Position numbers and translations under genes: made by a program. DNA of 64,000 nucleotides. It comes from Vicinamibacterales bacterium (GTDB lineage Bacteria; Acidobacteriota; Vicinamibacteria; Vicinamibacterales; UBA2999). The stretch lies in the NCBI GenBank assembly GCA_050250955.1, contig JBFWNR010000003.1:430250-494249 (forward strand), in the 5' to 3' direction. Position 1 is the first letter of the stretch. Each line of letters starts with the position of its first letter. This document shows positions 1 through 13,850 of the stretch, in pieces. The notes beneath the pieces are model-generated. The model did no database searches, was not told the origin of the DNA, and worked only from the letters and a program-made list of their open reading frames with translations.

Positions 1-2
1 GC

Positions 3-1091
3 TGGATCCTGGTGCTGGCCGGCGTCAGCCAGCCGCTGGAGTGGGCCGAGTTCCCGCTGGTGGTCGACGCGGTCGTGGTCGTCACCCTCGTCGCCGCCGC
101 CGTCCAGTTCCTGCCGCCCTTCTTCGGCCGCAGCCTCGAGTCGATGTACGTGTCGAGCTGGTACATCGTCGGCGCGCTGGTGTTCACGCTGCTGGCGTAT
201 CCGATGGGCAACCTGGCGCCGGAGTTCCTGCCCGGCGCCGCCGGCGCGGCGATGAGCGGCCTGTGGATCCACGATGCGGTCGGGCTGTTCGTCACCCCGC
301 TCGCGCTGGCCATCATCTACTTCGTCATTCCCGCCTCGACCGGCCGGCCCATCTACAGCCACTTCCTGTCGATGCTGGGGTTCTGGCTGCTGTTCTTCCT
401 CTATCCGCTCAACGGGACGCACCACTACGTGTTCTCGGTGATTCCGATGGCGGCGCAGATGGGCGCCATCGTCGCCTCGACGCTGCTCGGGCTCGACGTG
501 GTGATCGTGGTGGCCAACCTGTTCCTGTCGATGCGTGGCGCCGGCCTCCTGCCCCGTGATCCGGCGCTGCGCTTGGTCGGCACCGGCACGGCGTTCTACA
601 TCGTGGTGAGCCTCCAGGGCTCGGCGCAGGCGCAGATGGCGGTCAACCAGGCCGTGCACTTCACCGACTGGGTCGTCGGCCATTCGCACATGGCGATGCT
701 CGGCTTCGCCAGCTTCGCCGCCGCCGGCGGCCTGGTGCACGCCTGGCAGCGCATGCCCGACGCCCGCTACAACGCCCGCGCCATCGCGTGGGCGTACTGG
801 CTGCTGGTCGTGGGCCTGGTGTTGATGGTGGTCGACCTGACGGCGGCCGGCCTCCTCCAGGGCCGGTTGTGGAACAACGGCGCCTCGTGGATCGACTCGG
901 TGACGGCGTCGCGGCCGTACTGGGTCGCCCGGGCATACATCGGCCTGGTCCTGGCTGCGGGTTTCATCGCGCTGCTCGTCGGCCTGACCACCGGCCCGCG
1001 CGGCGCCGGCATGGCGGTGCGCCCGGCCCCTGCGCCCGATGCCGCCGATCCGGTGGCGCCGCGGCTGTCGCCGGCGACGGAGGGCGCATGA
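3..1091 (+). CDS. Divergent cbb3-type (C-family) heme-copper oxidase subunit I, CcoN-like; 5' end lies outside the window
   Basis: Aligns by eye to the canonical CcoN at 6298: WIHDAVG (vs WYGHNAVA), FLYPLNGTHHY (vs VYIWAGPHHL), HFTDWVVGHSH (vs HFTDWTIGHVH); many hydrophobic helices. Frame is open from the window edge. Confidence 0.85.
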   Translation, partial: WILVLAGVSQPLEWAEFPLVVDAVVVVTLVAAAVQFLPPFFGRSLESMYVSSWYIVGALVFTLLAYPMGNLAPEFLPGAAGAAMSGLWIHDAVGLFVTPLALAIIYFVIPASTGRPIYSHFLSMLGFWLLFFLYPLNGTHHYVFSVIPMAAQMGAIVASTLLGLDVVIVVANLFLSMRGAGLLPRDPALRLVGTGTAFYIVVSLQGSAQAQMAVNQAVHFTDWVVGHSHMAMLGFASFAAAGGLVHAWQRMPDARYNARAIAWAYWLLVVGLVLMVVDLTAAGLLQGRLWNNGASWIDSVTASRPYWVARAYIGLVLAAGFIALLVGLTTGPRGAGMAVRPAPAPDAADPVAPRLSPATEGA

Positions 1092-2341
1092 CCGACCCGG
1101 CGGGCCGCGCGCTGCGCATGGCCTACGTGGTGGCCGGCGTGTGCGGCGTGGCGTTCTTCGCGCTGTCGGTCGGGCTGCTCGGCGTGTGGCCGGCGCGGGT
1201 GCTCGACGCCGAGACCGAGGCGATGGCGCCGCCGCGGCCGCTGGAGCCGACGACCAGCGAACGCCGTGGCCGCGCCGTCTACGTTCGCGAGGGCTGTGCG
1301 TACTGCCATACGCAGCAGATCCGGTATCTGCCCGCCGACCGCGCCCGCTTCGGCGCGCCGACGCTCGCCTGGGAGACACGGCGCGACACGCCGCACCTGC
1401 TGGGCACGCGTCGCATCGGCCCGGACCTGAGCCGCTCGGCCGGCACCCGCAGCGCCGACTGGCACTTCGCGCACCTGTATGCGCCCCGCGAGATCGTGGC
1501 CGGCTCGGTGATGCCGGCCTTCGCGTCGCTCTTCGACGGCGGTGCCGACCGTCCGCGCCAGGACGCCCGCGACCTGGTGGCCTATCTCGACTCGCTCGGC
1601 CGGGCCCGCGAGCTGGCCGGGCCCGAAGGCGAGGCGCACGCCCGCGAGGCCTGCGACTGCGCCGACGACGAGCGGCGGTCGCTCGCCTTCGGCGGGCCGT
1701 TGAACGCGCATCCCGCGCAGGCGCGGCGTGCCGAGTCGCTGCCGGCGGCGCTGACGAGCATCCGTGGCGACGCGGCCCGCGGCCACGATCTCTACGGCCA
1801 GCACTGCGCGACCTGCCATGGCGACACCGGCGCCGGCGACGGACCGGGCGCCCGGTGGCTCACCCCCGCCCCGGCCAACCTGGCCGCCCACACCTACGCG
1901 ACGCCGCGGCTGGCCGAGGTGCTGTGGAACGGCGTTGCCGGCACCGCCATGCCCGCGTGGCGCGATCGCACGCCCGCCGACCTGGCCGATCTCGCCGCCG
2001 CCGTCCAGTCGTTTGGCGACACCCGGCCGGAACCGCCCGTGCCCGATCACCTGGTGGCGATGGGCGCCGCGGTCTACACCGCCAACTGCGTGCAGTGCCA
2101 CGGCGAGCGCGGCGACGGACGTGGGTCGGCCGCCGACAGCCTGGTGATGGCGCCGGCGAGCTTCCGGGGGCAGCGCATCAGCCTGGCCGAGGCGGTGCGC
2201 GTGCTGCGCGACGGCATCCCGGGCACGCCGATGGCGCCGTGGACGTCGCGGCTCACCGATGCCGAACGGCTGGCCGTCGCCCACCACGTCCGCGGCTTCT
2301 ACGACGCGCCGGCAGCGTCGACACAGGCGGCGGGGCGATGA
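1088..2341 (+). CDS. CcoO-like cytochrome c fused to two extra c-type heme domains (triheme)
   Basis: ATG at 1088 overlaps the upstream stop (ATGA). N-terminal TM helix; CcoO motifs EGCAYCHTQQIR, GTRRIGPDL, GSVMP; then CATCH...AMPAW and CVQCH...PMAPW. Confidence 0.85.
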   Translation: MTDPAGRALRMAYVVAGVCGVAFFALSVGLLGVWPARVLDAETEAMAPPRPLEPTTSERRGRAVYVREGCAYCHTQQIRYLPADRARFGAPTLAWETRRDTPHLLGTRRIGPDLSRSAGTRSADWHFAHLYAPREIVAGSVMPAFASLFDGGADRPRQDARDLVAYLDSLGRARELAGPEGEAHAREACDCADDERRSLAFGGPLNAHPAQARRAESLPAALTSIRGDAARGHDLYGQHCATCHGDTGAGDGPGARWLTPAPANLAAHTYATPRLAEVLWNGVAGTAMPAWRDRTPADLADLAAAVQSFGDTRPEPPVPDHLVAMGAAVYTANCVQCHGERGDGRGSAADSLVMAPASFRGQRISLAEAVRVLRDGIPGTPMAPWTSRLTDAERLAVAHHVRGFYDAPAASTQAAGR

Positions 2342-2514
2342 TCACCGACCTGGTGGTATGGACGTCGGTGGCCCTGGCCGCGGCGTTCGTCGTCGCCTGG
2401 GCCTGCTCGCCCCGACTGCGCGCGTGGATCGAGCGGCCCAGCCAGGTCTTCCTCGACGCCGTGCGGCGCTATGATCGCGACACCCGAGGCGAACGGGAGC
2501 AGACCAGGCCGTGA
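2338..2514 (+). CDS. Small single-TM membrane protein (58 aa), possible CcoQ-like accessory subunit
   Basis: MITDLVVWTSVALAAAFVVAWACSPRLRAWIERP...; 4-bp overlaps with both neighbours (ATGA, GTGA). Confidence 0.65.
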   Translation: MITDLVVWTSVALAAAFVVAWACSPRLRAWIERPSQVFLDAVRRYDRDTRGEREQTRP

Positions 2515-3536
2515 CTACCGGAGACGAGCGCGGATTGCCGGGACTGGCGATCGCCGGCCTGCTGGCCGCGATCGTGGCCGTGGCGGCGGTGGCAGTCGGC
2601 CTGCGGACAGCCGACGTGGCTCCCGGCGGGTCGTCCGACGCGGCCTCGGCGACGGCACCGGCCACCTCGGGCGCCGAGCGGCCGCGGCCGCCGCAGCCGA
2701 TCGGCGAGGTGCCGGCCCACGCCACCGAGGAGTATGGCCGCCGGCTGGTGGCGCAGACGGCGGAGCTGCTCGGCCCCGACTCGGCGGCCCGCTACACGCA
2801 GAGTCGCCTCAACTGCGGCTCGTGCCACCTGATGACCGGCACCGATCCGGGCACCCTGGCGCTGCTGCAGACGAGCGAGCACTACCCGCGCTTCTCGGGC
2901 CGGGCCGGGGCGATGACCGACATCGAGGATCGCATCAACGAGTGCATGCAGCGGAGCATGAACGGCAAGCCGCTGCCACTCGACAGCCCCGAGATGATGG
3001 CGATGGCGGCCTACCTGCGATCGCTCGGCTCGCGCTACGAGGCGATGGGCGCGTCGCTGCGCAAGGCCGACGAACCGCCCGGGTTTGCGACCCCGTCGCG
3101 CGCCGCCGACCCGGCGGCCGGCGAGACGGTCTACACCACGCGCTGCGCGGTGTGCCACGGCGCCGACGGCCTCGGGCTGCTGGCGACCGGCGATCCCGCC
3201 AAGGGCTATCTCTTCCCGCCGCTCTGGGGCCCGGACTCGTTCAACGACGGAGCGGGCATGCACCGCGTGCTGACCGCCGCCCGCTTCATCAAGGCGCGCA
3301 TGCCGCTCGGCGAGCCCACCCTGACCGACGACCAGGCGTTCGACGTCGCCGCCTTCATCAACACCAAGCCGCGACCGGCGATGCCGAATCTCGAGCAGGA
3401 CTACCCGGACCGCTCGACCAAGCCGGTGGACAACCCCTACGGCCCCTTCGCCGACGACTTCCCGGTGGAACAGCACAAGTTCGGGCCGTTCCAGCCGATC
3501 GAGGCGCACTACAAGGCGCTGAAGAGCCGGAAGTGA
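2511..3536 (+). CDS. tsdA: Diheme cytochrome c of the thiosulfate dehydrogenase (TsdA) family
   Basis: CGSCH and CAVCH; RINECMQRSMNG carrying the putative Cys heme ligand; YLFPPLWGPDSFNDGAGMHR; FIKARMPLG; N-terminal hydrophobic anchor or signal. Confidence 0.75.
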   Translation: MTTGDERGLPGLAIAGLLAAIVAVAAVAVGLRTADVAPGGSSDAASATAPATSGAERPRPPQPIGEVPAHATEEYGRRLVAQTAELLGPDSAARYTQSRLNCGSCHLMTGTDPGTLALLQTSEHYPRFSGRAGAMTDIEDRINECMQRSMNGKPLPLDSPEMMAMAAYLRSLGSRYEAMGASLRKADEPPGFATPSRAADPAAGETVYTTRCAVCHGADGLGLLATGDPAKGYLFPPLWGPDSFNDGAGMHRVLTAARFIKARMPLGEPTLTDDQAFDVAAFINTKPRPAMPNLEQDYPDRSTKPVDNPYGPFADDFPVEQHKFGPFQPIEAHYKALKSRK

Positions 3537-3559
3537 CGCCGAACTCGGCGGGACCGGGC

Positions 3560-3568
3560 TGCTAGACT
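3560..3568 (+). promoter_or_regulatory. Candidate extended -10 element for tRNA-Ser
   Basis: TGCTAGACT (TGnTAnnnT) about 25 nt upstream of the tRNA. Confidence 0.45.
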
Positions 3569-3592
3569 GTTTCCGACCCGCACACGTCCCGC

Positions 3593-3682
3593 GGAGGGAT
3601 GGCCGAGTGGTTGATGGCGGCGGTCTTGAAAACCGCTGTACCCGAAAGGGTATCGGGGGTTCGAATCCCTCTCCCTCCGCCA
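3593..3682 (+). tRNA. tRNA-Ser (anticodon UGA)
   Basis: Acceptor stem GGAGGGA/TCCCTCC, discriminator G, encoded CCA; anticodon arm GCGGT-CTTGAAA-ACCGC; long variable arm TACCC-GAAA-GGGTA; T-loop GTTCGAATC. Confidence 0.97.
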
Positions 3683-3819
3683 CTATCCGCCGTGCGGAAC
3701 CGAACCTGGAGCGAGGCGGCTGCAGGTGGCCCGTGCGCGGAGTTCCTGTCAGCGCTGAATAATCCCGGGGAGTGAAGCCGGCGGCACGCCGACGGACCAG
3801 CACCGACGGCGACCGGGAT

Positions 3820-3834
3820 TGGCACGCGACCTGC
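3820..3834 (+). promoter_or_regulatory. sigma54 (RpoN)-type -24/-12 promoter
   Basis: TGGCACGCGACCTGC fits GG-N10-GC and TGGCACG-N4-YTGC; followed by GGAGG at 3848 and ATG at 3858. Confidence 0.65.
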
Positions 3835-3857
3835 GTGGCCAACTGCCGGAGGGCGCC

Positions 3858-5468
3858 ATGGATCGTCCCTCGGCCGCAGCCACGGCAGCGGTGCGTCAAG
3901 AGGTCATTCGGAACCGTCTCGGGTGCTGCGGTGTGGTCCTCGCCTGCGGGCTGGCGCTCGGTGGGTCGAACTGCAGCATCAGGACGCAACAGCCAGCGCT
4001 GGTGGCGCCGACCGCGGCCCCCGCGCCGTCCAAGGAGAGCCCGTATCTCAAAGCACACCTCCACAGCGGTGAGGTGTACGTCCTCGACTCGTGGCATCTG
4101 AGCACGGACAGCTCGCACCTCGAAGGTACCGGCTCCCGCTTCACCGTGCGACGGGAGCCAGCCGGCACCGGCCCCCAGTCGATCGCCGTCGAGGCGATCG
4201 CACTCATCGAGACCAATGCCCCGGACCACGTCGTCTCGATCGGCGCGGGTGTGCTCGGCACGCTCACGGTCGTGATGGGCACCATCACGGGCGTCTGCCT
4301 GGCCGATCCCAAGTCGTGCTTCGGATCGTGTCCGACTTTCTATGTCGACCAGGAAAGCCAGGGTCGACCCGAGGCCGAGGGCTTCTCGGAATCGATCGCG
4401 CGGGTGCTCGAGGCCCGCGACGTCGATGCGCTGTACACGGCTCGACCGACGGGCCGACAGTTCGCCCTGACCATGCGGAACGAGGCCCAGGAGACCCATG
4501 CGGTCCGACGGGTGCGTCTGCTCGCCGCCGACCGGCCGCCGGATGGACGCGTCATCGCCGGCGTCGACGAGCGCTTCTACCCGGCGACCGGCCTGTCCCG
4601 TCCCGATCGCTGTCGGGCGGCGGAAGGGGACTGCCTGGCGGCAGTTGCGGCCCACGACGGCGTCGAGCGCCAGTCGCCGGCCGACGCCGACGACCTGGCC
4701 ACGCGCGAGGACGTGGAACTGGTCTTCCCGCCGATGAGCGGCCGGGTCGGTCTGGTCGTCGCGGCGCGGCAGACGCTCCTGTCGACGTTCCTCTTCTACC
4801 AGACGATGGCCTATCTCGGTCGCAGCGGCGGCGATTTCCTGGCACTGCTCGAGCGCGGCGGGACCGAGCACGCCGAGAAGGCGATGGGCATGGCCCGCGC
4901 CCTGGGCGGCATCGACGCCGCGGTGGACGACGGCCGCGGGTCGTGGGCGCCCATCGGCAGCTTCGACGAAGCTGGCCCCATCGCGGGCGACGTGCGGCTC
5001 CTGCCGTTCGACACGGACCGGCAGGCGCCGATCCGCGTGCGCCTGCGGATGGCCAAGGGCCACTGGCGGCTCGGCTGGGTGGCGCTGGCCCGCGTCGGTG
5101 AACCGGTGACGCCAACGGTGGTCGAAGCGACCGCGGTGCTGCGGGAGGGGCGGCCTGTTCCGACCGCACTCGCCCAGTTGCGCGGCCTCGGCGGGCGCCT
5201 GGCGACGCTGCCAGGCGACGCCTACCGAATCAGCTTCGAGCTGCCGCGGCCCGGTCCGGAACTCGAGCTGTTCCTGGAAACCGAAGGCTACTACTACGAG
5301 TGGCTCCGCACCGAGTGGCTGCACGAAGAGAACCCGTGGTTGGCGGCGCTCGCCCTGGGCTCGGCGGAGCAGGCGTTGCGCGTGCTCGCCAGGCCGTTCA
5401 AGGAGCGGGAGGCCACCCTCGAGGCCGCCTTCTGGGCGAGCCGGTTCAGGAAGGGAGGCGCGCAATGA
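3858..5468 (+). CDS. Hypothetical exported or lipoprotein-like protein with Cys-rich CLADPKSCFGSCP motif
   Basis: Long ORF with GC3-rich codons; SD GGAGG; hydrophobic segment ending GGSNC; second hydrophobic helix just before the Cys motif. Confidence 0.75.
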   Translation: MDRPSAAATAAVRQEVIRNRLGCCGVVLACGLALGGSNCSIRTQQPALVAPTAAPAPSKESPYLKAHLHSGEVYVLDSWHLSTDSSHLEGTGSRFTVRREPAGTGPQSIAVEAIALIETNAPDHVVSIGAGVLGTLTVVMGTITGVCLADPKSCFGSCPTFYVDQESQGRPEAEGFSESIARVLEARDVDALYTARPTGRQFALTMRNEAQETHAVRRVRLLAADRPPDGRVIAGVDERFYPATGLSRPDRCRAAEGDCLAAVAAHDGVERQSPADADDLATREDVELVFPPMSGRVGLVVAARQTLLSTFLFYQTMAYLGRSGGDFLALLERGGTEHAEKAMGMARALGGIDAAVDDGRGSWAPIGSFDEAGPIAGDVRLLPFDTDRQAPIRVRLRMAKGHWRLGWVALARVGEPVTPTVVEATAVLREGRPVPTALAQLRGLGGRLATLPGDAYRISFELPRPGPELELFLETEGYYYEWLRTEWLHEENPWLAALALGSAEQALRVLARPFKEREATLEAAFWASRFRKGGAQ

Positions 5469-6013
5469 GGCCGCATCTCTCGAAAGCCGTCGCGCTGCTG
5501 GTGGCCGCTGCGCTGCTTCACGGCTGCGCCATCGGGCGCATGACGCCGTCGGTGCTCGGCCGCGACGTCAAGGTGATCCCCCGCGCCGGCGGCACCAGAA
5601 CGCAAGGCGAGCTGCTGACCGTCACCCCCGAGCATGTCGTGGTGCTGGCGAAGCACGGGGTCCAGACCGTGGCCATTCCGCAGATTCGCGAAGTCCGTGT
5701 CCGGCGCCACGGCTTCGACGGCCGCAAGGCATGGGCGTGGACGCTCATCGGCGCCGCCGTCACCGGCATCGGTCTGGCCGTCGCATGCACCTCGGTCGAA
5801 GGGACGAGCGAGTGCGGCGGGGCCGGATTCGCCGGTGCGGTCCCATGGCTGGTCTTCGGAGGAATCGCATCCCTGGCGGCGGGGCGCACCGCGTTTCAAT
5901 CGTTGGATCCGGCCCGGCGCGACCTGCTGAGCCCGTTCGCCCGCTACCCGCAGGGGCCGCCGCCGGGGTTCGACCTTCAGCGCCTGACCACGCCGACGAC
6001 GACGTCACGGTGA
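5465..6013 (+). CDS. Hypothetical lipoprotein with two hydrophobic Gly/Ala-rich helices
   Basis: ATGA overlap with upstream gene; SD GGAGG; MRPHLSKAVALLVAAALLHGC lipobox-like signal. Confidence 0.75.
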   Translation: MRPHLSKAVALLVAAALLHGCAIGRMTPSVLGRDVKVIPRAGGTRTQGELLTVTPEHVVVLAKHGVQTVAIPQIREVRVRRHGFDGRKAWAWTLIGAAVTGIGLAVACTSVEGTSECGGAGFAGAVPWLVFGGIASLAAGRTAFQSLDPARRDLLSPFARYPQGPPPGFDLQRLTTPTTTSR

Positions 6014-6058
6014 CGCTCGGGCCGACCGCTCCGGTCGGATATCGGCGGTCGCACGACA

Positions 6059-6078
6059 CCGCGGGGCAAATCCCGCGG
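6059..6078 (+). terminator. GC-rich hairpin downstream of the lipoprotein pair (possible terminator, no U-tract)
   Basis: CCGCGGG-GCAAAT-CCCGCGG inverted repeat. Confidence 0.35.
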
Positions 6079-6136
6079 CGTTCGCGTAGTTCCCCACGGC
6101 TGCGGCGCCGCGTCACGCCCGCACCAGGGCATCGCT

Positions 6137-6174
6137 CGTGAAAAAGAGCACAAGTCGGTTGGAACGATGCTTGC
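6137..6174 (+). promoter_or_regulatory. sigma54-type promoter with adjacent CRP/FNR-family-like box upstream of the cco-act operon
   Basis: TGGAACGATGCTTGC at 6160-6174 (GG-N10-GC); CGTGA-AAAAGA-GCACA at 6137-6152 matches TGTGA-N6-TCACA at 8 of 10 positions. Confidence 0.55.
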
Positions 6175-6297
6175 CCTCCCCGGTCGCTGATCGCTGAGGA
6201 CGAAGCTGCGCCCCGGGGCCGGCTTCGCGGGTTCGGGTGTGGGCGACCGTGTGGTCGCGCGGCCGGTGCCGCCAGCGTTGACCGGGTGGGGGACTCG

Positions 6298-8550
6298 ATG
6301 GGCGACACCGTTCGATACGACGACCGCACCCCACGCCTGTTCTTCCTCGCCGCCGTGGTGTGGGCCGTGGTCGGCATGCTGGTCGGCGTGCTGATCGCCG
6401 CCATGCTCTTCATGCCGGCGTTGAACCTGGCGCCGTACCTGACCTTCGGCCGGTTGCGGCCGCTGCACACCAACGCCGTCATCTTCGCGTTCTGCGGCAA
6501 CATCATCTTCGCCGGCACCTACCACTCGATGCAGCGGCTGCTGAAGACGCGGCTCTTCAGCGACCGGCTGTCGGCGATCCATTTCTGGGGCTGGCAGCTG
6601 CTCATCGTCGCCGCCGCCGTCGCCCTGGTCAGCGGCGCGACCCAGGCCAAGGAATACGCCGAGCTGCCCTGGGTGCTCGACATCGTCGTCGCCCTGCTGT
6701 GGGTGACCTTCGCGGTCAACTTCTTCGCCACCCTGGCCATCCGCCGCGAGAAGCACATCTACGTCGCGGTGTGGTTCTACATCGCCACCATCGTCGCCGT
6801 CGCCATCCTGCACATCGGCAACAGCATGGCGATGCCCTACTCCTGGGTGGGCAGCTACTCGGCCTACAGCGGCGTCAAGGACGCCCTGATGCAGTGGTGG
6901 TACGGCCACAACGCGGTGGCGTTCTTCCTGACCACGCCGTTCCTGGGCCTGATGTACTACTACCTGCCCAAGGCGGCCGAGCGGCCGGTGTTCAGCTACC
7001 GGCTGTCGATCATGCACTTCTGGTCGCTGGTCTTCGTCTACATCTGGGCCGGTCCGCACCACCTCCACTACTCCGCGGTGCCCGAGTGGGCGTCCACGCT
7101 CGGGATGCTGTTCTCGCTGGTGCTGTGGATGCCGTCGTGGGGCGGCATGGTCAACGGGTTCTTCACGCTGCGCGGCGCCTGGCACAAGGTGCGCGAGGAC
7201 CCGATCCTCAAGTTCATGATCGTCGCCGTCACCTACTACGGCATGTCGACCTTCGAAGGGCCGATGATGTCGATCAAGTCGGTGAACGCCGTCTCGCACT
7301 TCACCGACTGGACGATCGGCCACGTGCACGCCGGCGCGCTGGGCTGGAACGCCTTCCTGTCGTTCGGCATCCTCTACTGGGTCGTGCCGCGGCTGTGGAA
7401 GACGCCGCTCTACTCGACCCGGCTCGCCACCTTCCACTTCTGGGTCGCCACCATCGGGCTCATCGGCTACCAGGTGTCGATGTGGGTGGCCGGCATCACC
7501 CAATGGGCGATGTGGCGGGCCTTCGAGCCCGACGGCCGCCTGGTCTACCCCGACTTCATCGAGACGGTGGTCCGCATCGTGCCGATGTACTGGGTCCGGC
7601 TGCTGTCGGGCCTGCTGTTCTTCTCCGGGCTGCTGGTCTTCTGCTGGAACCTGTTCAAGACGATCCGCAGCGCCCCGGCCGACTACGCCGTCGAGCCCGA
7701 GGTGGTGGCGCCGCCGCTGGTCCGCGACCTCGCCGCCCCCGGCGCGGTGACGCCGGCCAACACCTACGACCACGCCTTCTTCCGCCTGCAGCACGAGATG
7801 CGGCACGGCTTCCACCGCATGCTCGAGGGCCGGATGGTCACCTTCACGGTGCTCACGGCGCTGGCCCTGGCGGTGGGCTCGCTGGCCGAGACCATCCCGA
7901 TGTTCTTCAACAAGGAGAACGTCAAGGAGATCGCCAGCGTGCACCCGTACTCGCCGCTGGAGGTCGTCGGCCGCGACATCTACATCCGCGAGGGCTGCTA
8001 CAACTGCCACTCGCAGATGGTCCGGCCGTTCCGCTACGAAACCGAGCGGTACGGCGAGTACTCGAAGGCCGGCGAGTACGTCTACGACCACCCGTTCCAG
8101 TGGGGCTCGAAGCGCACCGGCCCCGACCTGCACCGCATCGGCGGCAAGTACCCGTCGCTGTGGCACGTGCGCCACATGCAGCAGCCCAGCTCGACGACGC
8201 CGGGCTCGGTCATGCCGGCCTATCCCCACCTGCTGACGTCGCACTACGACACCAGCCTCATCGGCGCCAAGCTGCGCGCCCTGCGCAAGGTCGGGGTGCC
8301 CTACAGCGACGGCGAGATCGCGACGGCCGTGGACGCAATGGCGCGGCAGGGCAGCGCGATCGCCGCCGAGGTCGAGTCGCAGCAGGGTCCGACCGGGCTG
8401 GGCGACAAGGAGATCGTCGCCCTTACTGCCTATCTGCAGCGACTCGGCACCGACATCCGCTGGAAGCGGCCGGACGCCCGGACGCCCTACTCGGCCACGG
8501 TGGCCGCGCCGGCGCCGGGCGGCGTGGCCGGCGGTGGAGCGGGGAGGTAG
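6298..8550 (+). CDS. ccoNO: cbb3-type cytochrome c oxidase fused subunits I/II (CcoN-CcoO)
   Basis: FGRLRPLHTNAVIFAF, WWYGHNAVAFFLT, YIWAGPHHL, HFTDWTIGHVHAGALGW; C-terminal EGCYNCHSQMVRP, WGSKRTGPDL, SVMPAY. Confidence 0.96.
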   Translation: MGDTVRYDDRTPRLFFLAAVVWAVVGMLVGVLIAAMLFMPALNLAPYLTFGRLRPLHTNAVIFAFCGNIIFAGTYHSMQRLLKTRLFSDRLSAIHFWGWQLLIVAAAVALVSGATQAKEYAELPWVLDIVVALLWVTFAVNFFATLAIRREKHIYVAVWFYIATIVAVAILHIGNSMAMPYSWVGSYSAYSGVKDALMQWWYGHNAVAFFLTTPFLGLMYYYLPKAAERPVFSYRLSIMHFWSLVFVYIWAGPHHLHYSAVPEWASTLGMLFSLVLWMPSWGGMVNGFFTLRGAWHKVREDPILKFMIVAVTYYGMSTFEGPMMSIKSVNAVSHFTDWTIGHVHAGALGWNAFLSFGILYWVVPRLWKTPLYSTRLATFHFWVATIGLIGYQVSMWVAGITQWAMWRAFEPDGRLVYPDFIETVVRIVPMYWVRLLSGLLFFSGLLVFCWNLFKTIRSAPADYAVEPEVVAPPLVRDLAAPGAVTPANTYDHAFFRLQHEMRHGFHRMLEGRMVTFTVLTALALAVGSLAETIPMFFNKENVKEIASVHPYSPLEVVGRDIYIREGCYNCHSQMVRPFRYETERYGEYSKAGEYVYDHPFQWGSKRTGPDLHRIGGKYPSLWHVRHMQQPSSTTPGSVMPAYPHLLTSHYDTSLIGAKLRALRKVGVPYSDGEIATAVDAMARQGSAIAAEVESQQGPTGLGDKEIVALTAYLQRLGTDIRWKRPDARTPYSATVAAPAPGGVAGGGAGR

Positions 8551-8552
8551 CC

Positions 8553-8747
8553 GTGCTGCAGGACCTGGCCACCGGGCTCTCCACCGTCCTCGCCACGGCG
8601 TCGCTGCTGTTCTTCATCGCGGTGTACGCGGTGGTCGTGGTGCGGATCGTCCGGGCCCGACCCGAGGACCTCGAGGCGCAGGCGCGACTGGCCCTCGACG
8701 ACGACGCCGCGCCGCGGCCGCGCCGTCAGGCCGTCACCCCCGAGTGA
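8553..8747 (+). CDS. ccoQ: cbb3 oxidase small subunit CcoQ
   Basis: GTG after GGAGG; SLLFFIAVYAVVVVRIV...QARLALDD; located between ccoO and ccoP. Confidence 0.8.
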   Translation: MLQDLATGLSTVLATASLLFFIAVYAVVVVRIVRARPEDLEAQARLALDDDAAPRPRRQAVTPE

Positions 8748-8759
8748 GGCGAGCGCGTC

Positions 8760-9347
8760 ATGGCTGAGTACGAGGACAAGGTTCTCCACGAACTCGACGG
8801 CATCAAGGAGTACGACAACCCGATGCCGGGATGGCTGATGGCCATCTGGTGGGGGTCGCTGGTCTTCTCGGCGGCCTACCTGATGTACTACGCCCTCAGC
8901 TTCGGCGAAGGCACGATGGACGCCGAGTACCGCCAGCAGACGGCGGCGGCGGTCGGCGAGGTGCAGGCCTACTTCGACGCCAACCCGCTGGTGCCGCCGA
9001 CCCCGGCCGAGCTGCTCGGCGGCGCCGCCAACCCGGCGGTGGTGGGCCTGGGCGCGTCGCGCTTCGCGCGTTCCTGTGCGGCGTGCCACGGCGAGCTGGC
9101 CCAGGGGCTCATCGGCCCCAACCTGACCGACGACCGCTGGATTCACGGCGGCTCGGTCGAGCAGATCTTCCAGAGCGTCGCCAAGGGCTGGCCGGCCAAG
9201 GGCATGCCGCCGTGGGGCCGCGCCGTGCCGCCCGAAGAGCTGGCGGCGCTGGTCTCCTACGTCCGCAGTCTCCAGGGCTCGAATCCACCCAATCCGCGGG
9301 CGCCCGAGGGCGATCCGTTCGCGGCGGAACCGCTGCCGGGGCGATAG
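8760..9347 (+). CDS. ccoP: cbb3 oxidase subunit III CcoP, short monoheme form
   Basis: HELDGIKEYDNPMPGW N-terminal motif; single CAACH; IGPNLTDDRWIHG; KGMPPW. Confidence 0.92.
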   Translation: MAEYEDKVLHELDGIKEYDNPMPGWLMAIWWGSLVFSAAYLMYYALSFGEGTMDAEYRQQTAAAVGEVQAYFDANPLVPPTPAELLGGAANPAVVGLGASRFARSCAACHGELAQGLIGPNLTDDRWIHGGSVEQIFQSVAKGWPAKGMPPWGRAVPPEELAALVSYVRSLQGSNPPNPRAPEGDPFAAEPLPGR

Positions 9348-9349
9348 CC

Positions 9350-10813
9350 ATGGGTGCCGCCGTCCGTTCCAGCGAGCCTCGCGCCGCCACACCGGCCACC
9401 CGCGAACGCATCTACGAGGTGGCCCCACCCGAGGAGCTGCTCTATTCGCTGTCGGCCGACGGCAAGCGCAAGTTCATGCACCCGGTGGTGCGGAAGGGGC
9501 ACTACTGGGCGATCCGCCGTGCCCTCGCCTACGCGCTGATGGTGCTGTTCTTCGCGCTGCCGCTCATCCCGATCGGCGGACATCCGGCGGTGCTGCTCGA
9601 CATCGCCACCCGGCGCTTCCACGTGTTCGGCGCGACGTTCCACCCCACCGACAACCTGCTGCTCGCCGCCTTCGGATTCGGCGTGGTCGTCACGGTGTTC
9701 TTCGTCGGCTCGACGTTCGGACGGGTGTGGTGCGGCTTCGGCTGCCCGCAGACGGTGTACCTCGAGTTCCTGTTCCGGCCGATCGAGGCGCTCATCGAAG
9801 GCGGCCCGACCAACCAGCGGCACCTCAACAAGTCGCCGTGGACGGCGCGGAAGCTCGCCGTCAAGGGCGCGAAGTACGTCGTCTTCGGGCTTCTCGCCGT
9901 GGTCATGGCCACCAACTTCGTGGCCTACTTCACCGGCTGGGCGGCGCTCGCCCCGGGGCTGCTGTACGCGCCGGGCGAGTGGACCGGCGCGCTCTTCACG
10001 ATCGCCTTCCTCACCGCGCTCATCAGCTTCGACTTCGGCTGGTTCCGCGACCAGATGTGCACGATCGCCTGCCCCTACGGCCGGCTGCAGAACGTGCTCT
10101 CCGACAAGGACACGCTGCTGGTCGCCTACGACACCGATCGCGGCGAGCCGCGGACCAGGTCGCGCGAGCTGGCGCCGGGCATGGGCGCGTGCATCGACTG
10201 CGGCGCCTGCGTCGCCGCGTGCCCGACCGGCGTGGACATCCGCCGCGGCCTGCAGGTGGAGTGCATCGGCACGGCCCAGTGCGTCGATGCCTGCGACGAG
10301 GTGATGCGCAAGCTCGGCCGGCCGACCGGGCTCATCACGTTCACCTCCGAGCGCGAGCAGCAGGGCGGCCGCCGCCACCTGTGGCGGCCGCGCAACCTCG
10401 CCTACCTGGGCCTGATGCTGCTCGCCTGGGGCACCTTCGGCACGCTGGTCTTCACCCGCGCCGACGCGCTGGTCGAGGTGGTGCGCGGCGGGCGTGAGCC
10501 GTACCGGCTGCTGCCCACCGGCGAGGTCGCCAACCAGCAGCGGCTGCGGTTCACCAACCAGCGCGACGAGACCCAGCGCTTCACCGTCGAGGTGCTGAGC
10601 CCGGCCGACGTCTCGCTGGTGCTCAGCCAGTCGCCGGTCGTCGTCGCCCCGGAGCAGGTCGTGACCATCAACGCGGTCACGACGGTGCCGCGCGGGATCT
10701 TCACCGACGGTCAGGCCACCGTGCGCTACCGCGTCACCTCGGACGGCGGCTTTGCCAGGGAGATCGAGTTCCTGCTGCTCGGTCCGTACGGCAGCGGAGG
10801 GCCGCAGCCGTGA
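9350..10813 (+). CDS. ccoG: cbb3 accessory 4Fe-4S membrane protein CcoG/FixG
   Basis: GRVWCGFGCPQTV, CTIACPYGRLQ, CIDCGACVAACPTGVDIRRGLQVECIGTAQCVDAC. Confidence 0.93.
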   Translation: MGAAVRSSEPRAATPATRERIYEVAPPEELLYSLSADGKRKFMHPVVRKGHYWAIRRALAYALMVLFFALPLIPIGGHPAVLLDIATRRFHVFGATFHPTDNLLLAAFGFGVVVTVFFVGSTFGRVWCGFGCPQTVYLEFLFRPIEALIEGGPTNQRHLNKSPWTARKLAVKGAKYVVFGLLAVVMATNFVAYFTGWAALAPGLLYAPGEWTGALFTIAFLTALISFDFGWFRDQMCTIACPYGRLQNVLSDKDTLLVAYDTDRGEPRTRSRELAPGMGACIDCGACVAACPTGVDIRRGLQVECIGTAQCVDACDEVMRKLGRPTGLITFTSEREQQGGRRHLWRPRNLAYLGLMLLAWGTFGTLVFTRADALVEVVRGGREPYRLLPTGEVANQQRLRFTNQRDETQRFTVEVLSPADVSLVLSQSPVVVAPEQVVTINAVTTVPRGIFTDGQATVRYRVTSDGGFAREIEFLLLGPYGSGGPQP

Positions 10814-11346
10814 AGGTGCTGCGCCTGCTCTCCGAGTACCGGTGGCCGATCTTCATCGGCGGCCACCTGACGATGTCGCTGGTCGCCAGTGGCGTGCTGG
10901 TCTACGTGGCGACCCGTCCCGACGTGCCGCGGCCGATCCGCGGCTACTACGAGGCGGCGCGGACGTGGGATGCCGACCGCGCCGTGGAGGAGGCCAGCCG
11001 CGCGCTGGGATGGACGGTGCGCTACGAGCTGCCCGTCGGCGTGCCGCACCTGGCCGGGATGCCGCGCCCCATCGACGTGAGCGTCGCCGACCGCGACGGC
11101 CGGCCGGTGCCCGGGCTGGTCGGCCAGCTCGTCGCGATGCGCCCGGCGGATGCCCGCTTGAACCAGCGCGGCGACCTGGTGGCGGTGCCGCGCGCCGACG
11201 GCAGCTACCGGACCCTGATGCGGCTCGACGAGGCCGGGGCGTGGGATCTGCGGCTGGAGGTGCGGCAGCAGGCCATGCGCTTCGTCCACAGCGCACGGTT
11301 CGTCGTGCCGGCCGGGGAGCCGGCGACGCTGGCGGGGGAGCGATGA
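10810..11346 (+). CDS. ccoH: FixH/CcoH family assembly protein
   Basis: WPIFI TM helix, GYYE motif, GAWDLRL; position between ccoG and ccoI. Confidence 0.8.
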   Translation: MKVLRLLSEYRWPIFIGGHLTMSLVASGVLVYVATRPDVPRPIRGYYEAARTWDADRAVEEASRALGWTVRYELPVGVPHLAGMPRPIDVSVADRDGRPVPGLVGQLVAMRPADARLNQRGDLVAVPRADGSYRTLMRLDEAGAWDLRLEVRQQAMRFVHSARFVVPAGEPATLAGER

Positions 11347-13850
11347 CGACCCCCGTCCCCGCCGACGCCGTTCGCGCCGTGGGCTGCGCGCACTGCGGCC
11401 TGCCGGTGCCGGCCGGCCTGATGCGGCCGCACGACGACGCGCAGTTCTGCTGCCCGGGCTGCCGCCAGGTGCACGCGCTGGTGCGGGCGTGGGGCTTCGA
11501 GCAGTACTACCGCCTGGTCGAGCGGCAGCAGGGCACGCTCGAACCGGCGCGGGTCTCGGGTCGTGCGTTCGACGACTTCGACGATCCGGCCGTGCAGGCC
11601 GCCGCCACCGAGACGCTCGGCGACCGCCGGCGCACCCGCCTGTTCCTCGAGGGCGTGCACTGCACGGCGTGCGTCTGGCTGGTGGAGAAGCTGCCGGCGG
11701 TGCTCGCCGGCGTGGACGAGGTGCGGCTGAACTACGGCACCGCCGTCGCCGAGGTCACCTGGCGCCCGGCCGAGACGAGGCTGTCCGCCGTGGCCCGCGC
11801 CCTCGACCGGCTCGGCTACACGCCGCACGTGCACCAGGCGGCCCGGGTGCAGGACGCCCGCCGCGCCGAGGACCGCATGGCGCTCGTACGACTCGGCGTA
11901 GCCGCCGCCTGCGCCATGAACCTGATGTTCCTCTCCGGCGCGCTCTACGCCGGGGAGTACTCCGGCATGGCCTCGCCCTACGCCGCCTTCTTCCGCTGGC
12001 TGTCGCTGGCGGTGGCGGCGCCGGTCGTCCTCTTCTCGGCGCGGCCCTTCTTCCAGACCGCGCTGGCCGGCCTGGCCGCCGGCGTCGTGCACATCGACCT
12101 GCCGATCGCCGTGGCCATCGCGATCGCCGCGGCAGCCAGCGCCTGGAACGTCGTGGTCGGCCACGGCCCGCTCTGGTTCGACTCGCTGGCCATGCTCATC
12201 GCCGCCCTGCTCGCCGCCCGCCAGCTGCAGCGCGGCGCCCAGCGTGCGGCGCTCGAGCGCGCCGACAGCCTGCGCGGCGTGGCCTTCCTGGAGTTCGCCC
12301 GACGCCTCGACGGCGACGGCGACCAGGCGGCTGTCGTCGAGGTGCCGCTCGCGGCGCTGGCGTCGGGCGACCGCGTCGAGGTCCGCAGCGGCGAACTCGT
12401 GCCGGTGGACGGACGGGTGCTGAGCGGACGGTCCGCGCTCGACAACGCCGTGCTGACGGGCGAGGCCACACCGCTGGCGGTCGCCGCCGGCGACGCCGTG
12501 CACGCCGGCGCCACCAACCTCGGTGCCCGTCTGGTGGTCCGCGTCGAGGCGGTGGGCGCGGCCACGCGCGTCGGCGCGCTGCTGGCGGTGGTGCAGGACG
12601 CCCTGGCCAGCAAGCCGGCGCTGCTCCAGATCACCGATCTGCTCGCCCGCCGCTTCGTCCAGCTGCTGCTGGTCGCGGCGGTGGCGACGGCGGCAATCGG
12701 CGGGTGGACGCTCGGACCCGACCAGGCGGTCCTGCGCGTGGTCGCCCTGCTGGTCGTGTCGTGCCCGTGCGCGCTGGGCCTGGCCGTGCCGCTGGCGCTG
12801 TCGGTGGCGCTGATGCGCGCCGCCACCGCCGGCATCTTCGTCAAGAACCCGGACGCGCTCGAGCGGCTCCGGCACGTCGGCACGGTGCTGCTCGACAAGA
12901 CCGGCACCGTGACCGACGGGCGGGTAAGCGTGGTGCGCTGGGTGGGCGACGACCGCGCCCTTCAGTTGGCCAGGGCGCTCGAGGCCGAGTCGTCGCACCA
13001 CGTGGCGCGGGCCTTCCAGGATGCCGAACCGCGGCAGCTGCATCTCGTGCCGACGGTCACCGGGGTCGTGGAAATGCCCGGCCACGGCATCGCCGGGCGG
13101 GTCGACGGCCACGACGTCCGCGTCGGGACGCTCGCGTTTGCGGTGGGCGCCGCCGCGATGGCGTCGCCGCTGGACGAGGCGCGGGCGGCGCTGATCGCCG
13201 AGGGGCTGAGCCCGGTGTGTGTCGGCGTCGACGGCCGCCTCGCCGGGATCGCCGGGATCGGCGACCGGCTGCGCCCCGACGCCGCGGCCACCGTCGCGGT
13301 GCTGCGGCGGCGCGGCATCAAGGTCCGGTTGCTGTCGGGCGATCACCCGGAAGTGGTCGCCCGCATCGGCGAGCGGCTCGGGCTCGATCCGGCCGACGCC
13401 CAGGGCGGGCTGACGCCGGAAGGAAAGCACGACATCGTCGCCGGGCTGGTCGCCCGGCGTGAACGCGACAGCTCGGGCGCGGTGGTCATGGTCGGCGACG
13501 GCGTGAACGACGCCGCGGCGCTGGCGTTGGCCGATGTCGGCGTGGTCGTGCACGGCGGCACCGGCGCGTCGATCCTCGCCGCCGATGTCGTGCTGGCCCG
13601 CGAGGGCGTGACGCCGCTGGTCGAGCTGCTCGACGGCGCCCGGCGGCTGCGCGGCGTCATCGGCCGCAACATCGGCTTCTCGCTCCTCTACAACGTCACC
13701 GCGTCGTCGCTGGCGCTGGCCGGTCTGGTCGGTCCGCTCGCCGCCGCCGTGCTGATGCCGCTGTCATCGCTGGCGGTCGTGCTTTCGTCGGTGCTGACCT
13801 GGACATTCGTGCCGGCGCGGGCGACCGCACCGCGTATTCGCGAGGCTTGA
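11343..13850 (+). CDS. ccoI: Copper-translocating P1B-type ATPase CcoI/FixI
   Basis: CAHCG...FCCPGC, GVHCTACVW, LTGE, SCPCALGLA, DKTGT, MVGDGVNDA. Confidence 0.93.
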   Translation: MTTPVPADAVRAVGCAHCGLPVPAGLMRPHDDAQFCCPGCRQVHALVRAWGFEQYYRLVERQQGTLEPARVSGRAFDDFDDPAVQAAATETLGDRRRTRLFLEGVHCTACVWLVEKLPAVLAGVDEVRLNYGTAVAEVTWRPAETRLSAVARALDRLGYTPHVHQAARVQDARRAEDRMALVRLGVAAACAMNLMFLSGALYAGEYSGMASPYAAFFRWLSLAVAAPVVLFSARPFFQTALAGLAAGVVHIDLPIAVAIAIAAAASAWNVVVGHGPLWFDSLAMLIAALLAARQLQRGAQRAALERADSLRGVAFLEFARRLDGDGDQAAVVEVPLAALASGDRVEVRSGELVPVDGRVLSGRSALDNAVLTGEATPLAVAAGDAVHAGATNLGARLVVRVEAVGAATRVGALLAVVQDALASKPALLQITDLLARRFVQLLLVAAVATAAIGGWTLGPDQAVLRVVALLVVSCPCALGLAVPLALSVALMRAATAGIFVKNPDALERLRHVGTVLLDKTGTVTDGRVSVVRWVGDDRALQLARALEAESSHHVARAFQDAEPRQLHLVPTVTGVVEMPGHGIAGRVDGHDVRVGTLAFAVGAAAMASPLDEARAALIAEGLSPVCVGVDGRLAGIAGIGDRLRPDAAATVAVLRRRGIKVRLLSGDHPEVVARIGERLGLDPADAQGGLTPEGKHDIVAGLVARRERDSSGAVVMVGDGVNDAAALALADVGVVVHGGTGASILAADVVLAREGVTPLVELLDGARRLRGVIGRNIGFSLLYNVTASSLALAGLVGPLAAAVLMPLSSLAVVLSSVLTWTFVPARATAPRIREA

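Follow-up and report, generated by a model that had tools for sequence, protein, structure and literature searches.

A divergent cbb3-like oxidase encoded with a TsdA-family cytochrome: a candidate thiosulfate:O2 respiratory module in Vicinamibacterales and two groups of Proteobacteria

Introduction

How electrons leave the thiosulfate dehydrogenases of the TsdA family for the respiratory chain is known for few organisms, in which TsdB, HiPIP or soluble cytochromes take them over. A 64,000-nucleotide stretch of a Vicinamibacterales genome (5.85 Mb, ~70% G+C; G000:C3:430250-494249), the whole of which we call the window, opens with genes for a cbb3-like oxidase that overlap, one into the next, as far as a gene for a TsdA-like cytochrome. 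The locus raises the question of whether enzyme and oxidase are wired to one another. The first-pass annotation of this DNA had proposed that they are, with two extra haems on the CcoO-like subunit replacing both TsdB and CcoP in a short chain from thiosulfate to O2 or NO. From comparisons of sequences and gene neighborhoods, we think it fairly probable that the operon encodes a dedicated, self-contained thiosulfate:O2 respiratory module that bypasses quinone. What is new here is the pairing; the kinds of component, a cbb3 oxidase and a TsdA, are already known. A full-text literature search, which excluded supplements and was incomplete for TsdA papers, returned no description of a tsdA-oxidase operon, and the word 'oxidase' is absent from a survey of tsdA and tetH in Thiobacillus and Sulfuriferula.

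Results

Organization of the operon

Positions 1-3536 of the window carry four genes on the plus strand, chained by start/stop overlaps that read ATGA at 1088-1091 and 2338-2341 and GTGA at 2511-2514 (Table 1). Overlaps of this kind imply translational coupling of the four genes. Both the overlaps and the gene content had been described in the first-pass annotation, with which the sequence, the Pfam and PDB matches and the hydropathy profiles agree: a CcoN-like catalytic subunit (CcoN'), a CcoO-like subunit fused to two further haem domains (CcoO'), a 58-residue peptide with one transmembrane (TM) stretch, and a dihaem cytochrome with TsdA motifs and a hydrophobic N-terminal segment. These 3.5 kb are the distal half of a seven-gene operon, the proximal genes of which encode two proteins exported by twin-arginine translocation (Tat), with a predicted DsrE-type fold, and a two-repeat protein.

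Conservation of the oxidase-TsdA pairing

Relatives of CcoN' were found at 57 loci in species-representative genomes, of which 50 are close (52-94% identity). The close loci comprise an Acidobacteria type (18 loci, 72-94% identity), a Gammaproteobacteria type from Pseudohongiella and Pseudomonadales (24 loci, 58-70%; hereafter the Gamma type) and a Thiobacillus/Sulfuriferula/Nitrosomonadales clade (8 loci, 52-56%; hereafter the Thiobacillus clade). The other seven, from Planctomycetota and Desulfarculales/Desulfobacteraceae, are distant (33-38%).

Of the 50 close loci, 44 have a TsdA-like gene adjoining those of the oxidase, and these 44 are all the loci with enough flanking sequence; at the six without it (L009, L018, L019, L033, L044 and L058) the contig ends inside ccoO' or just past it. 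Loci of the Acidobacteria and Gamma types have the gene downstream of ccoO', those of the Thiobacillus clade have it directly upstream of ccoN', and there is none at the seven distant loci. Linkage of tsdA among homologues was the test on which the proposed pairing had been staked beforehand, and it came through that test at every informative close locus.

Approached from the TsdA side, the gene is present in 32 of 401 sampled Acidobacteriota genomes and in 9 of the 11 from the window's family, although some of the sampled genomes are the same as those of the 57 loci and relatives are not independent, and the counts are to be read as a pattern rather than as statistics. In all nine family genomes that carry it, ccoO' and the small gene lie just upstream of TsdA. 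The two family genomes lacking the TsdA-like gene, both 100% complete, have no CcoN' at E <= 1e-20, in a search that was negative for all five test genomes and positive for four of four controls.

The TsdA-like cytochrome

The TsdA-like protein matches the SoxA/TsdA family PF21342 (44.9 bits, cut-off 27) as well as PF13442 and PF00034. It aligns across both haem domains with TsdA of Allochromatium vinosum (4wq7, E 9e-42) and also with the fusion protein TsdBA (5lo9, E 1.6e-30), its motif RINECMQRSMNG being in register with RIGDCFERSLNG of 4wq7, the region of the catalytic cysteine. According to PMC4423706, Cys123 of TsdA is both a ligand of the catalytic haem and the site of an S-thiosulfonate intermediate. 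Thiosulfate is bound by Arg109, Arg119 and Ser127, the first of which may be Lys; the same paper gives Ser127 as invariant in TsdA and absent from SoxA.

None of the 45 linked TsdA-like proteins (the window's own and 44 others) deviates in either CxxCH motif or in the residues that correspond to Cys123, Arg119 and Ser127. Arg occupies position 109 in 37 of them and Lys in 8, and position 224 is Arg in 36, Ser in 8 and a gap in one; the window's protein carries the equivalents of both Gly221 and Arg224. The Met ligand of haem 2 (M264, within RMPLG) aligns with KMPLG of 4wq7 and is Met in 44 of the 45, preceded by Arg in 37 and by Asn in 8. This Met is strictly conserved in TsdA and the Lys before it variable, as stated in PMC5146829. 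With two haem domains bearing CxxCH, the catalytic Cys, Arg119, Ser127 and Arg or Lys109, and the haem-2 Met, the protein is by its sequence a TsdA-family dihaem cytochrome, predicted to oxidize thiosulfate.

The protein also has an N-terminal hydrophobic stretch (residues 13-31, Kyte-Doolittle 2.67) and a C-terminal extension of ~50 residues that both the Acidobacteria type and the Gamma type conserve. All 18 linked TsdA N termini inspected show a hydrophobic helix that leads into a linker rich in Pro, Ala and Ser; this helix may be an anchor or a long signal peptide.

The catalytic subunit CcoN'

The window truncates the gene for CcoN', whose full frame of 475 codons (L004 11664-13091, L004 being this locus with 12 kb of sequence upstream of the window) begins ~330 nt before window base 1. 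The protein matches PF00115 with E 1.6e-48 when only its in-window part is compared and with E 3e-60 over the full frame, and it aligns with CcoN of Pseudomonas stutzeri (3mk7_A, E 2e-40) such that H60, E122, H207, Y251, H257, H258, H345 and H347 coincide. There is no ATG, GTG or TTG start ahead of the middle of the first TM helix. A CTG at L004 11670, 4-12 nt past the TAG of the preceding gene, is invariant in 5 of 5 aligned Vicinamibacterales relatives with spacers of variable length, and the database copy of CcoN' (473 residues) begins at this same codon. Judged from these alignments, CcoN' likely starts at the conserved CTG with translational coupling. A read-through fusion of the upstream gene with CcoN' was considered, as the TAG is in-frame in this genome, and rejected: the spacing differs by 1, 3 or 4 nt among the five relatives, with the CTG invariant.

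The six His ligands of haem b, haem b3 and CuB and the cross-link Tyr of helix 7, by which a C-family CcoN is recognized, are all present. H207, T215, S240, Y251, H257, Y317, H345 and H347 are kept in CcoN' and in all 57 relatives, and H60 and H258 fail only in partial sequences, with one gap and one X, respectively. E122 is missing from two relatives (a gap and a Ser), and Y223 is replaced by Phe in six. Two substitutions, H243G and E323Q, are invariant in CcoN' and 57 of 57 relatives, whereas the canonical CcoN encoded elsewhere in the window has His and Glu. We take both to be positions of the canonical cbb3 enzyme, with Glu323 near the haem b3 ligand; a literature search on the roles of E323 and H243 in cbb3 oxidases found nothing relevant.

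CcoN' shares 29% identity with the window's canonical CcoN. Its database relatives number more than 1100 at E <= 1e-10, and, where named, they are called 'cbb3-type subunit I' only. On alignment, CcoN' belongs to a divergent subfamily and is not a ccoN equivalog; its active site is of the O2-reductase type.

The trihaem subunit CcoO' and the small peptide

CcoO' begins with a FixO domain (PF02433, 114.7 bits, cut-off 29.6), matches the CcoO chains 8smr_F and 3mk7_B (E ~1e-25) and continues into two class-I cytochrome c domains, covered by two stretches of Cytochrome_CBB3 and by Cytochrom_C. Invariant in 35 aligned CcoO' sequences are C70/C73/H74, C240/C243/H244 and C334/C337/H338, together with M142, M288 and M382. 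An N-terminal TM helix (hydropathy maximum at residues 15-33), a FixO domain with CxxCH and Met, and a place directly after ccoN identify the protein as a CcoO (FixO) subunit. It falls short of the ccoO equivalog TIGR00781 (104 bits against 200.65) and has two extra haem domains fused to it. The extra domains are CcoP-like or generic class I by sequence, and TsdB is not among the 28 PDB matches of CcoO' at E <= 0.01. The operon has no ccoP gene. Neither CcoO' nor the TsdA-like protein contains FixP_N, and their TIGR00782 scores are 50.9 and 16 bits against a cut-off of 179.95.

The 58-residue peptide has one hydrophobic stretch (residues 5-23, Kyte-Doolittle 2.18 in a 19-residue window). Matches by tblastn occur in 23 of the 50 close loci, namely 17 of 18 of the Acidobacteria type and 6 of 24 of the Gamma type, and a small open reading frame (ORF) of L040, a locus of the Thiobacillus clade, gives matches to this region at six Acidobacteria-type loci. 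Five homologues gave no Pfam family even at E 10, where only chance-level rows appeared, and no FixQ match. The peptide is probably a small oxidase subunit, placed and sized like CcoQ and not a recognized member of any family.

At a Pseudohongiella locus (L024 7941-10643), CcoN' and the trihaem CcoO' are a single polypeptide of ~900 residues, and TsdA follows. An 883-codon open frame in an acidobacterial genome (G098:C81:5697-7076) suggests a CcoN'-CcoO' fusion there too.

Phylogeny of the two partners

The oxidase tree was rooted on the window's canonical CcoN, a single outgroup on a long branch. It unites the 22 TsdA-linked oxidases of the sample in one clade (Shimodaira-Hasegawa-like approximate likelihood ratio test, SH-aLRT, 99), with Planctomycetota as sister. 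In the TsdA tree, a weakly supported group (57/16) unites the partners of the downstream type. It lies inside a 100/100 clade that also holds an unlinked acidobacterial TsdA from the same order, the gammaproteobacterial partners being within that clade, and the Thiobacillus-clade partners occupy a separate 100/100 branch. The approximately unbiased (AU) test rejects a single clade of linked TsdAs, with a log-likelihood difference of 48 and p values of 0.0005 for the careful tree and 0.0001 for the quick one; the group was defined after the first tree had been seen, and the test used LG+G4 and 31 rows chosen from 73.

Because only the oxidases form a single clade, either the pairing arose on two occasions or it persisted while a partner was exchanged. 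Taken at face value, the trees have the module moving between Acidobacteriota and Gammaproteobacteria. One oxidase lineage with two TsdA lineages, together with movement between phyla, argues for a functional rather than a chance pairing.

The Thiobacillus clade and distant relatives

In the Thiobacillus clade, the gene order is tsdB-like, tsdA, ccoN', ccoO' and a small ORF. The dihaem tsdB-like gene stands beside tsdA in 8 of 8 loci, in which the trihaem CcoO is also present, and its product matches residues 5-192 of the TsdBA fusion 5lo9 (E 1.3e-37). As tsdB-like is kept alongside a trihaem CcoO, the extra haems of CcoO' are not general stand-ins for TsdB. The proposal that they replace both TsdB and CcoP therefore holds only in part. 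The module lacks ccoP, and tsdB was found in neither the Acidobacteria type nor the Gamma type.

A homologue of tetrathionate hydrolase (E 8.4e-162 to A. ferrooxidans 6l8a) lies in the cluster of two of the eight loci, L040 and L037. At these two (in L040 at 5805-13415), the cluster runs through DUF202, tsdB-like, tsdA, ccoN', trihaem ccoO', the small ORF, the tetrathionate hydrolase homologue and a 310-residue protein; the latter belongs to no family and is conserved in six of the eight loci.

Distant members of the CcoN' subfamily are wired to other donors. At a deltaproteobacterial locus (L056 4264-10351), an oxidase with Gly243 and Gln323 directly follows genes of alternative complex III (ACIII; NrfD, ActD) and a multihaem cytochrome, and at a Planctomycetota locus (L051 7021-10595) the subfamily oxidase comes after a dihaem cytochrome, in the vicinity of FixS and a P-type ATPase.

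Genes upstream of CcoN'

Three genes on the same strand precede CcoN' with short gaps between them. They encode two Tat-signal paralogues (211 and 233 residues) and a 360-residue protein with a signal peptide, so that a tsdB, which the first-pass annotation had thought might be hidden beyond the window edge, is not what lies there.

A Tat protein was modeled with AlphaFold at a predicted local distance difference test (pLDDT) score of 86.9. Foldseek matches this model to 2pd2 (E 2.8e-5) and 1l1s (9.7e-5), and to 3mc3, 3pnx, 1jx7 and 2hy5 (DsrEFH) at probability 0.93-0.98. On this model, the two exported proteins have a DsrE/YchN-type fold. Their conserved Cys, C154, is invariant in 27 sequences. 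Neither protein has a Pfam match at E <= 0.01. Homologues carry the JGI label 'intracellular sulfur oxidation DsrE/DsrF family protein', and 27 of 27 members of the family give weak matches to NF052225, 'thiosulfate dehydrogenase' (best E 6.8e-12). As the operon's own protein scores 19.9 bits against the equivalog cut-off of 300, these are distant kin only. From its name and length, we take NF052225 to be probably the model of the ~25-kDa thiosulfate dehydrogenase (TSD) AFE_0042 of A. ferrooxidans.

Among the 50 close loci, 33 include the DsrE-like gene in their module (17 of 18 of the Acidobacteria type and 16 of 24 of the Gamma type); by tblastn, it is absent from all eight Thiobacillus-clade modules. 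None was found by tblastn near the Pseudohongiella locus L024 either; because that locus has the fused oxidase and TsdA, the minimal conserved core is oxidase plus TsdA. A Tat-signal DsrE-fold homologue with 39-44% identity to the operon's first gene product also adjoins a TsdA homologue at 6 of 20 Acidobacteriota loci that have no oxidase within 1.5 kb (L072, L074, L084, L086, L088 and L089, in genomes G351, G375, G021, G175, G215 and G094). The DsrE-fold protein is thus tied to TsdA rather than to the oxidase, which suggests a TsdA/DsrE-like partnership of its own.

The third upstream gene (L004 10581-11663) encodes an exported protein of two ~165-residue repeats, each with two invariant Cys and a GAHxM motif that supplies a His; Gamma-type loci have a single repeat. 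Of the Acidobacteria-type loci, 15 of 18 have it along with the module, as do 9 of the 24 loci of the Gamma type. Its model is confident (pLDDT 89.7), and its fold finds no PDB match by Foldseek at E <= 0.001 and a best Z of 3.4 in a wide VIA-align search. Pfam and NCBIfam hold no matching family, and its neighbors in the Atlas are all labeled 'hypothetical protein'.

Ahead of the operon (L004 7631-8960) are a gene for a TauE/SafE anion exporter (E 2.5e-47) and, on the opposite strand, one for a TIGR01244/BLH-phosphatase-like sulfurtransferase. TauE is found near the module in 5 of 18 Acidobacteria-type loci (L057, L015, L013, L016 and L017).

Genomic setting

A canonical cbb3 cluster, the complete operon noted at first pass, starts 2.75 kb downstream of the TsdA-like operon (Table 1). 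Its ccoNO fusion exceeds the cut-offs of NF011053 (1130.3 bits against 1080) and TIGR00780 (667.6 against 583.15), and it is followed by a monohaem CcoP-like protein with FixP_N and Cytochrome_CBB3, by CcoG (TIGR02745, 389.9 bits against 316.7) and by a heavy-metal P-type ATPase. The genome has six genes for subunit I of haem-copper oxidases, CcoN' and five others, two of the latter being canonical ccoN(O) copies. With these five present, the CcoN' oxidase is not the general one, as had been supposed from the canonical operon alone.

A scan of window positions 3400-6400 for sigma-70 promoters and terminators returned nothing that exceeds shuffled sequence. Between tRNA-Ser and the canonical cbb3 genes (3819-6013) lie a 549-codon ORF and an overlapping 182-codon ORF, neither of which matches a Pfam or NCBIfam family save for a sub-threshold match to DUF6232.

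Table 1. Features of the operon and its downstream flank, in window coordinates
Feature	Position	Strand	Basis
CcoN' (CcoN-like catalytic subunit), 3' part, 362 codons	1..1091 (frame 3..1091)	+	PF00115
CcoO' (trihaem CcoO: CcoO-like with two C-terminal c-type cytochrome domains), 417 aa	1088..2341	+	FixO, Cytochrome_CBB3, Cytochrom_C
58-aa single-TM peptide	2338..2514	+	ORF with ATGA and GTGA overlaps
TsdA-like dihaem cytochrome c, 341 aa	2511..3536	+	PF21342, match to 4wq7
tRNA-Ser(TGA), downstream operon boundary	3593..3682	+	ARAGORN
Canonical cbb3 genes: ccoNO fusion 6286-8550, CcoP-like 8760-9347	6286..9347	+	followed by ccoG and P-type ATPase

Discussion

A possible path from thiosulfate to O2

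In the module that we favor, the TsdA-like cytochrome, tethered to the membrane, would convert two thiosulfate into tetrathionate at its His/Cys-ligated haem by way of a Cys S-thiosulfonate intermediate. Electrons would pass from haem 1 to haem 2 of TsdA, from there to the two CcoP-like haems fused to CcoO', and then via the haem of CcoO and haem b to the haem b3-CuB center of CcoN', where O2 would be reduced, presumably with proton pumping. Neither quinone nor bc1 would be required. The 58-residue peptide would be the fourth subunit of a physical complex in which TsdA takes the structural place of CcoP, and the DsrE-like proteins would possibly serve as carriers or traps of thiosulfonate or sulfane sulfur. 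The midpoint potential of the tetrathionate/thiosulfate couple is +198 mV (PMC6879331); electrons at this potential are too positive for quinone, and energy conservation therefore needs their delivery to a terminal oxidase. The sulfur context of the module consists of the tetrathionate hydrolase homologue, the DsrE-fold proteins with their NF052225 matches, and the TauE and sulfurtransferase genes.

Of the original proposal, the idea of an oxidase dedicated to TsdA is supported by the linkage, the catalytic residues and the metal ligands, whereas a general replacement of TsdB fails and NO as acceptor lacks specific backing.

Several points weigh against the thiosulfate:O2 module. Enzymes of the TsdA family work in both directions and as a rule pass their electrons to soluble or TsdB-type acceptors, and the genes could have stayed adjacent because they are co-regulated, not because their products form one complex. 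No ccoO' lies within the 1.5-kb flanks of 20 more distant TsdA homologues (34-56% identity) from the same phylum, and CcoN' was not found at E <= 1e-20 in three genomes of the same order with an unlinked TsdA; TsdA therefore does not need the CcoN' oxidase. Because the Thiobacillus clade retains a tsdB-like gene, additional carriers may take part in the electron transfer. On the oxidase side, the 362 in-window codons of CcoN' reach 161.3 bits against the cut-off of 583.15 for the ccoN equivalog TIGR00780, and H243G and E323Q may affect the reduction of O2 or the pumping of protons. Conservation of the DsrE-like partners and of the one with an unknown fold suggests that the actual substrate or product may go beyond thiosulfate and tetrathionate in free form. 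A weaker point is that the 25 TsdA-containing proteins of 598-2000 residues include no fusion with FixO or COX1, their precomputed Pfam domains being CCP_MauG/multihaem.

Alternative readings

The last but one of these points is at the center of two related alternatives. In the broader, which we regard as unlikely, the module would be a hitherto unrecognized periplasmic system for sulfur oxidation, in effect a Sox built onto an oxidase: a tethered SoxA-superfamily cytochrome would load thiosulfate-type sulfur onto the DsrE-fold proteins as carriers, with the two-Cys protein of unknown fold as a further partner and a proton-translocating C-family oxidase. If so, abundant 'heterotrophic' soil Vicinamibacteria and marine Pseudohongiella would gain energy from a cryptic sulfur cycle outside Sox, S4I, Dsr and Hdr. 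The narrower, about as unlikely in our estimate, has the TsdA-like protein oxidatively conjugate thiosulfate (or another sulfur anion) to the Cys of the DsrE-fold proteins rather than to a second thiosulfate, as SoxAX does to SoxYZ, with electrons still going to the dedicated oxidase. It would account for Tat-signal DsrE-fold proteins with an invariant C154 at two-thirds of the close loci and for their homologues beside TsdA at the six oxidase-free loci, and the TsdA-like protein does belong to the SoxA superfamily. Precedents are the conversion of DsrE3A by tetrathionate to a Cys-S-thiosulfonate, described in PMC4175335, and a periplasmic DsrE-like sulfurtransferase in a sox operon, noted in PMC9371685. 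However, Ser127, the residue that SoxA lacks, is invariant in the linked proteins, and the TsdA-like protein misses the SoxA equivalog TIGR04484 by a wide interval (39.4 bits against 110). The eight Thiobacillus-clade modules do without a DsrE-like gene, and the genome has no SoxB-type hydrolase above cut-off that could unload a carrier (best match 42.9 bits against 550). Nor does the genome present a Sox system otherwise: the operon's TsdA-like gene is its single PF21342 gene, and SoxB is missing as stated, SoxX and SoxYZ not having been searched.

It is also possible, and in our view quite unlikely, that the two partners are co-located and not hard-wired. The TsdA-like protein would then be an ordinary thiosulfate dehydrogenase or tetrathionate reductase working on the periplasmic cytochrome c pool, and the oxidase, for example a high-affinity one, would be co-regulated with it. 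Characterized TsdAs do use the soluble partners HiPIP, cytochrome c and TsdB (for tsdB, see also PMC9371685). The tsdB-like gene retained by the Thiobacillus clade and the lack of TsdA-oxidase fusions among the longer proteins fit as well. Harder to reconcile with loose co-location is a linkage that holds at 44 of 44 loci across two phyla, despite a change of gene order and a different TsdA lineage; at informative loci, the close-family oxidase is never found without TsdA. The start/stop overlaps imply coupled translation, the module has no ccoP, and all 18 inspected TsdAs have the anchor and flexible linker that a tethered subunit would have.

A third alternative, very unlikely, makes the TsdA-like protein a pure electron-entry subunit that has lost sulfur catalysis and replaces CcoP as dihaem entry for some other donor. 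It sits at the ccoP position, the end of the operon, and resembles CcoP in its N-terminal anchor and two c haems; its second domain matches Cytochrome_CBB3 and, weakly, a CcoP chain (3mk7_C, E 2.3e-7). Yet all 45 proteins retain the catalytic Cys, Arg119 and Ser127, with Arg or Lys at position 109 throughout, a constancy not expected of a plain carrier. A His/Cys-ligated haem has a low potential and is a poor relay to an oxidase. The tetrathionate hydrolase, DsrE-fold and TauE neighbors would also be left unexplained.

Least credible of all is that the haem-copper enzyme reduces a substrate other than O2, such as NO, or that the whole module works backwards to detoxify tetrathionate or sulfur: CcoN' is divergent, its invariant E323Q and H243G lying close to active site and channel, and cbb3 oxidases have some NO-reductase activity, but the CuB His residues and cross-link Tyr are kept (H207, H257 and Y251 in 57 of 57 relatives, H258 in 56, the last being an unread X), whereas NO reductases lack both that Tyr and CuB, and an oxidase cannot feed electrons to tetrathionate reduction. 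We reject a NO-reductase reading of CcoN' on account of the conserved CuB ligands and Tyr; of the two acceptors first proposed, O2 agrees with the active site and NO has no specific support.

Implications

If the thiosulfate:O2 module is real, an operon in which TsdA comes with its own C-family oxidase would be the shortest chain from thiosulfate to O2, and a distinct cbb3 subfamily would be defined by a trihaem CcoO, the lack of CcoP, and Gly243 and Gln323. The module occurs in common soil Acidobacteriota (nine of the eleven genomes sampled from the window's family), in Gammaproteobacteria of the marine Pseudohongiella type and among relatives of Thiobacillus and Sulfuriferula. It could mark widespread thiosulfate-supported respiration, which metagenome surveys confined to sox, dsr and S4I would not link to O2. 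It also offers a concrete target for the structure of a respiratory supercomplex and a testable role for periplasmic DsrE-fold proteins.

Comparison with known systems

Compared with the canonical CcoNOQP of P. stutzeri (3mk7/5djq), CcoN' aligns over 12 helices and has the six His, Tyr251, the calcium-site Glu122 and T215, Y223, S240 and Y317. CcoO' likewise has its FixO domain, with CxxCH and Met in place, the next gene encodes a small TM peptide, as ccoQ does, and extra c haems stand between the donor and the CcoO haem. The main differences are the 29% identity of the CcoN proteins, the missed ccoN and ccoO equivalog cut-offs, and H243G with E323Q. In addition, ccoP and FixP_N are lacking, two c-haem domains are carried by CcoO' instead, the small peptide has no FixQ match, and the last gene is of the TsdA type.

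The TsdA-like protein shares the two-domain dihaem build and the conserved catalytic residues of TsdA from A. vinosum (4wq7/4v2k) and Campylobacter jejuni and of TsdBA from Marichromatium purpuratum (5lo9). It departs from these in its anchor and Pro/Ala/Ser-rich linker, in the C-terminal extension of the Acidobacteria and Gamma types, and in its location in an oxidase operon. The residue before the Met ligand, Lys in A. vinosum TsdA, is Arg here and Asn in the Thiobacillus clade. The operon's Tat proteins, for their part, share a predicted fold with DsrE, DsrF and YchN and keep one invariant Cys, and unlike these cytoplasmic proteins they are exported and fall in no Pfam family at E <= 0.01.

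Operons that join an oxidizing enzyme to an oxidase have precedents in the rus operon of Acidithiobacillus ferrooxidans (cyc2-cyc1-coxBACD-rus) and in Acidianus ambivalens, where the thiosulfate:quinone oxidoreductase DoxDA goes with the DoxBCE oxidase. Like these and the ACIII-oxidase clusters, the present locus encodes a substrate-oxidizing module together with its own terminal haem-copper oxidase. The rus and DoxDA systems use A-type oxidases, with Fe2+ as donor or with a quinone step, whereas the locus described here would combine a C-family oxidase with a c-type cytochrome enzyme and need no quinone step.

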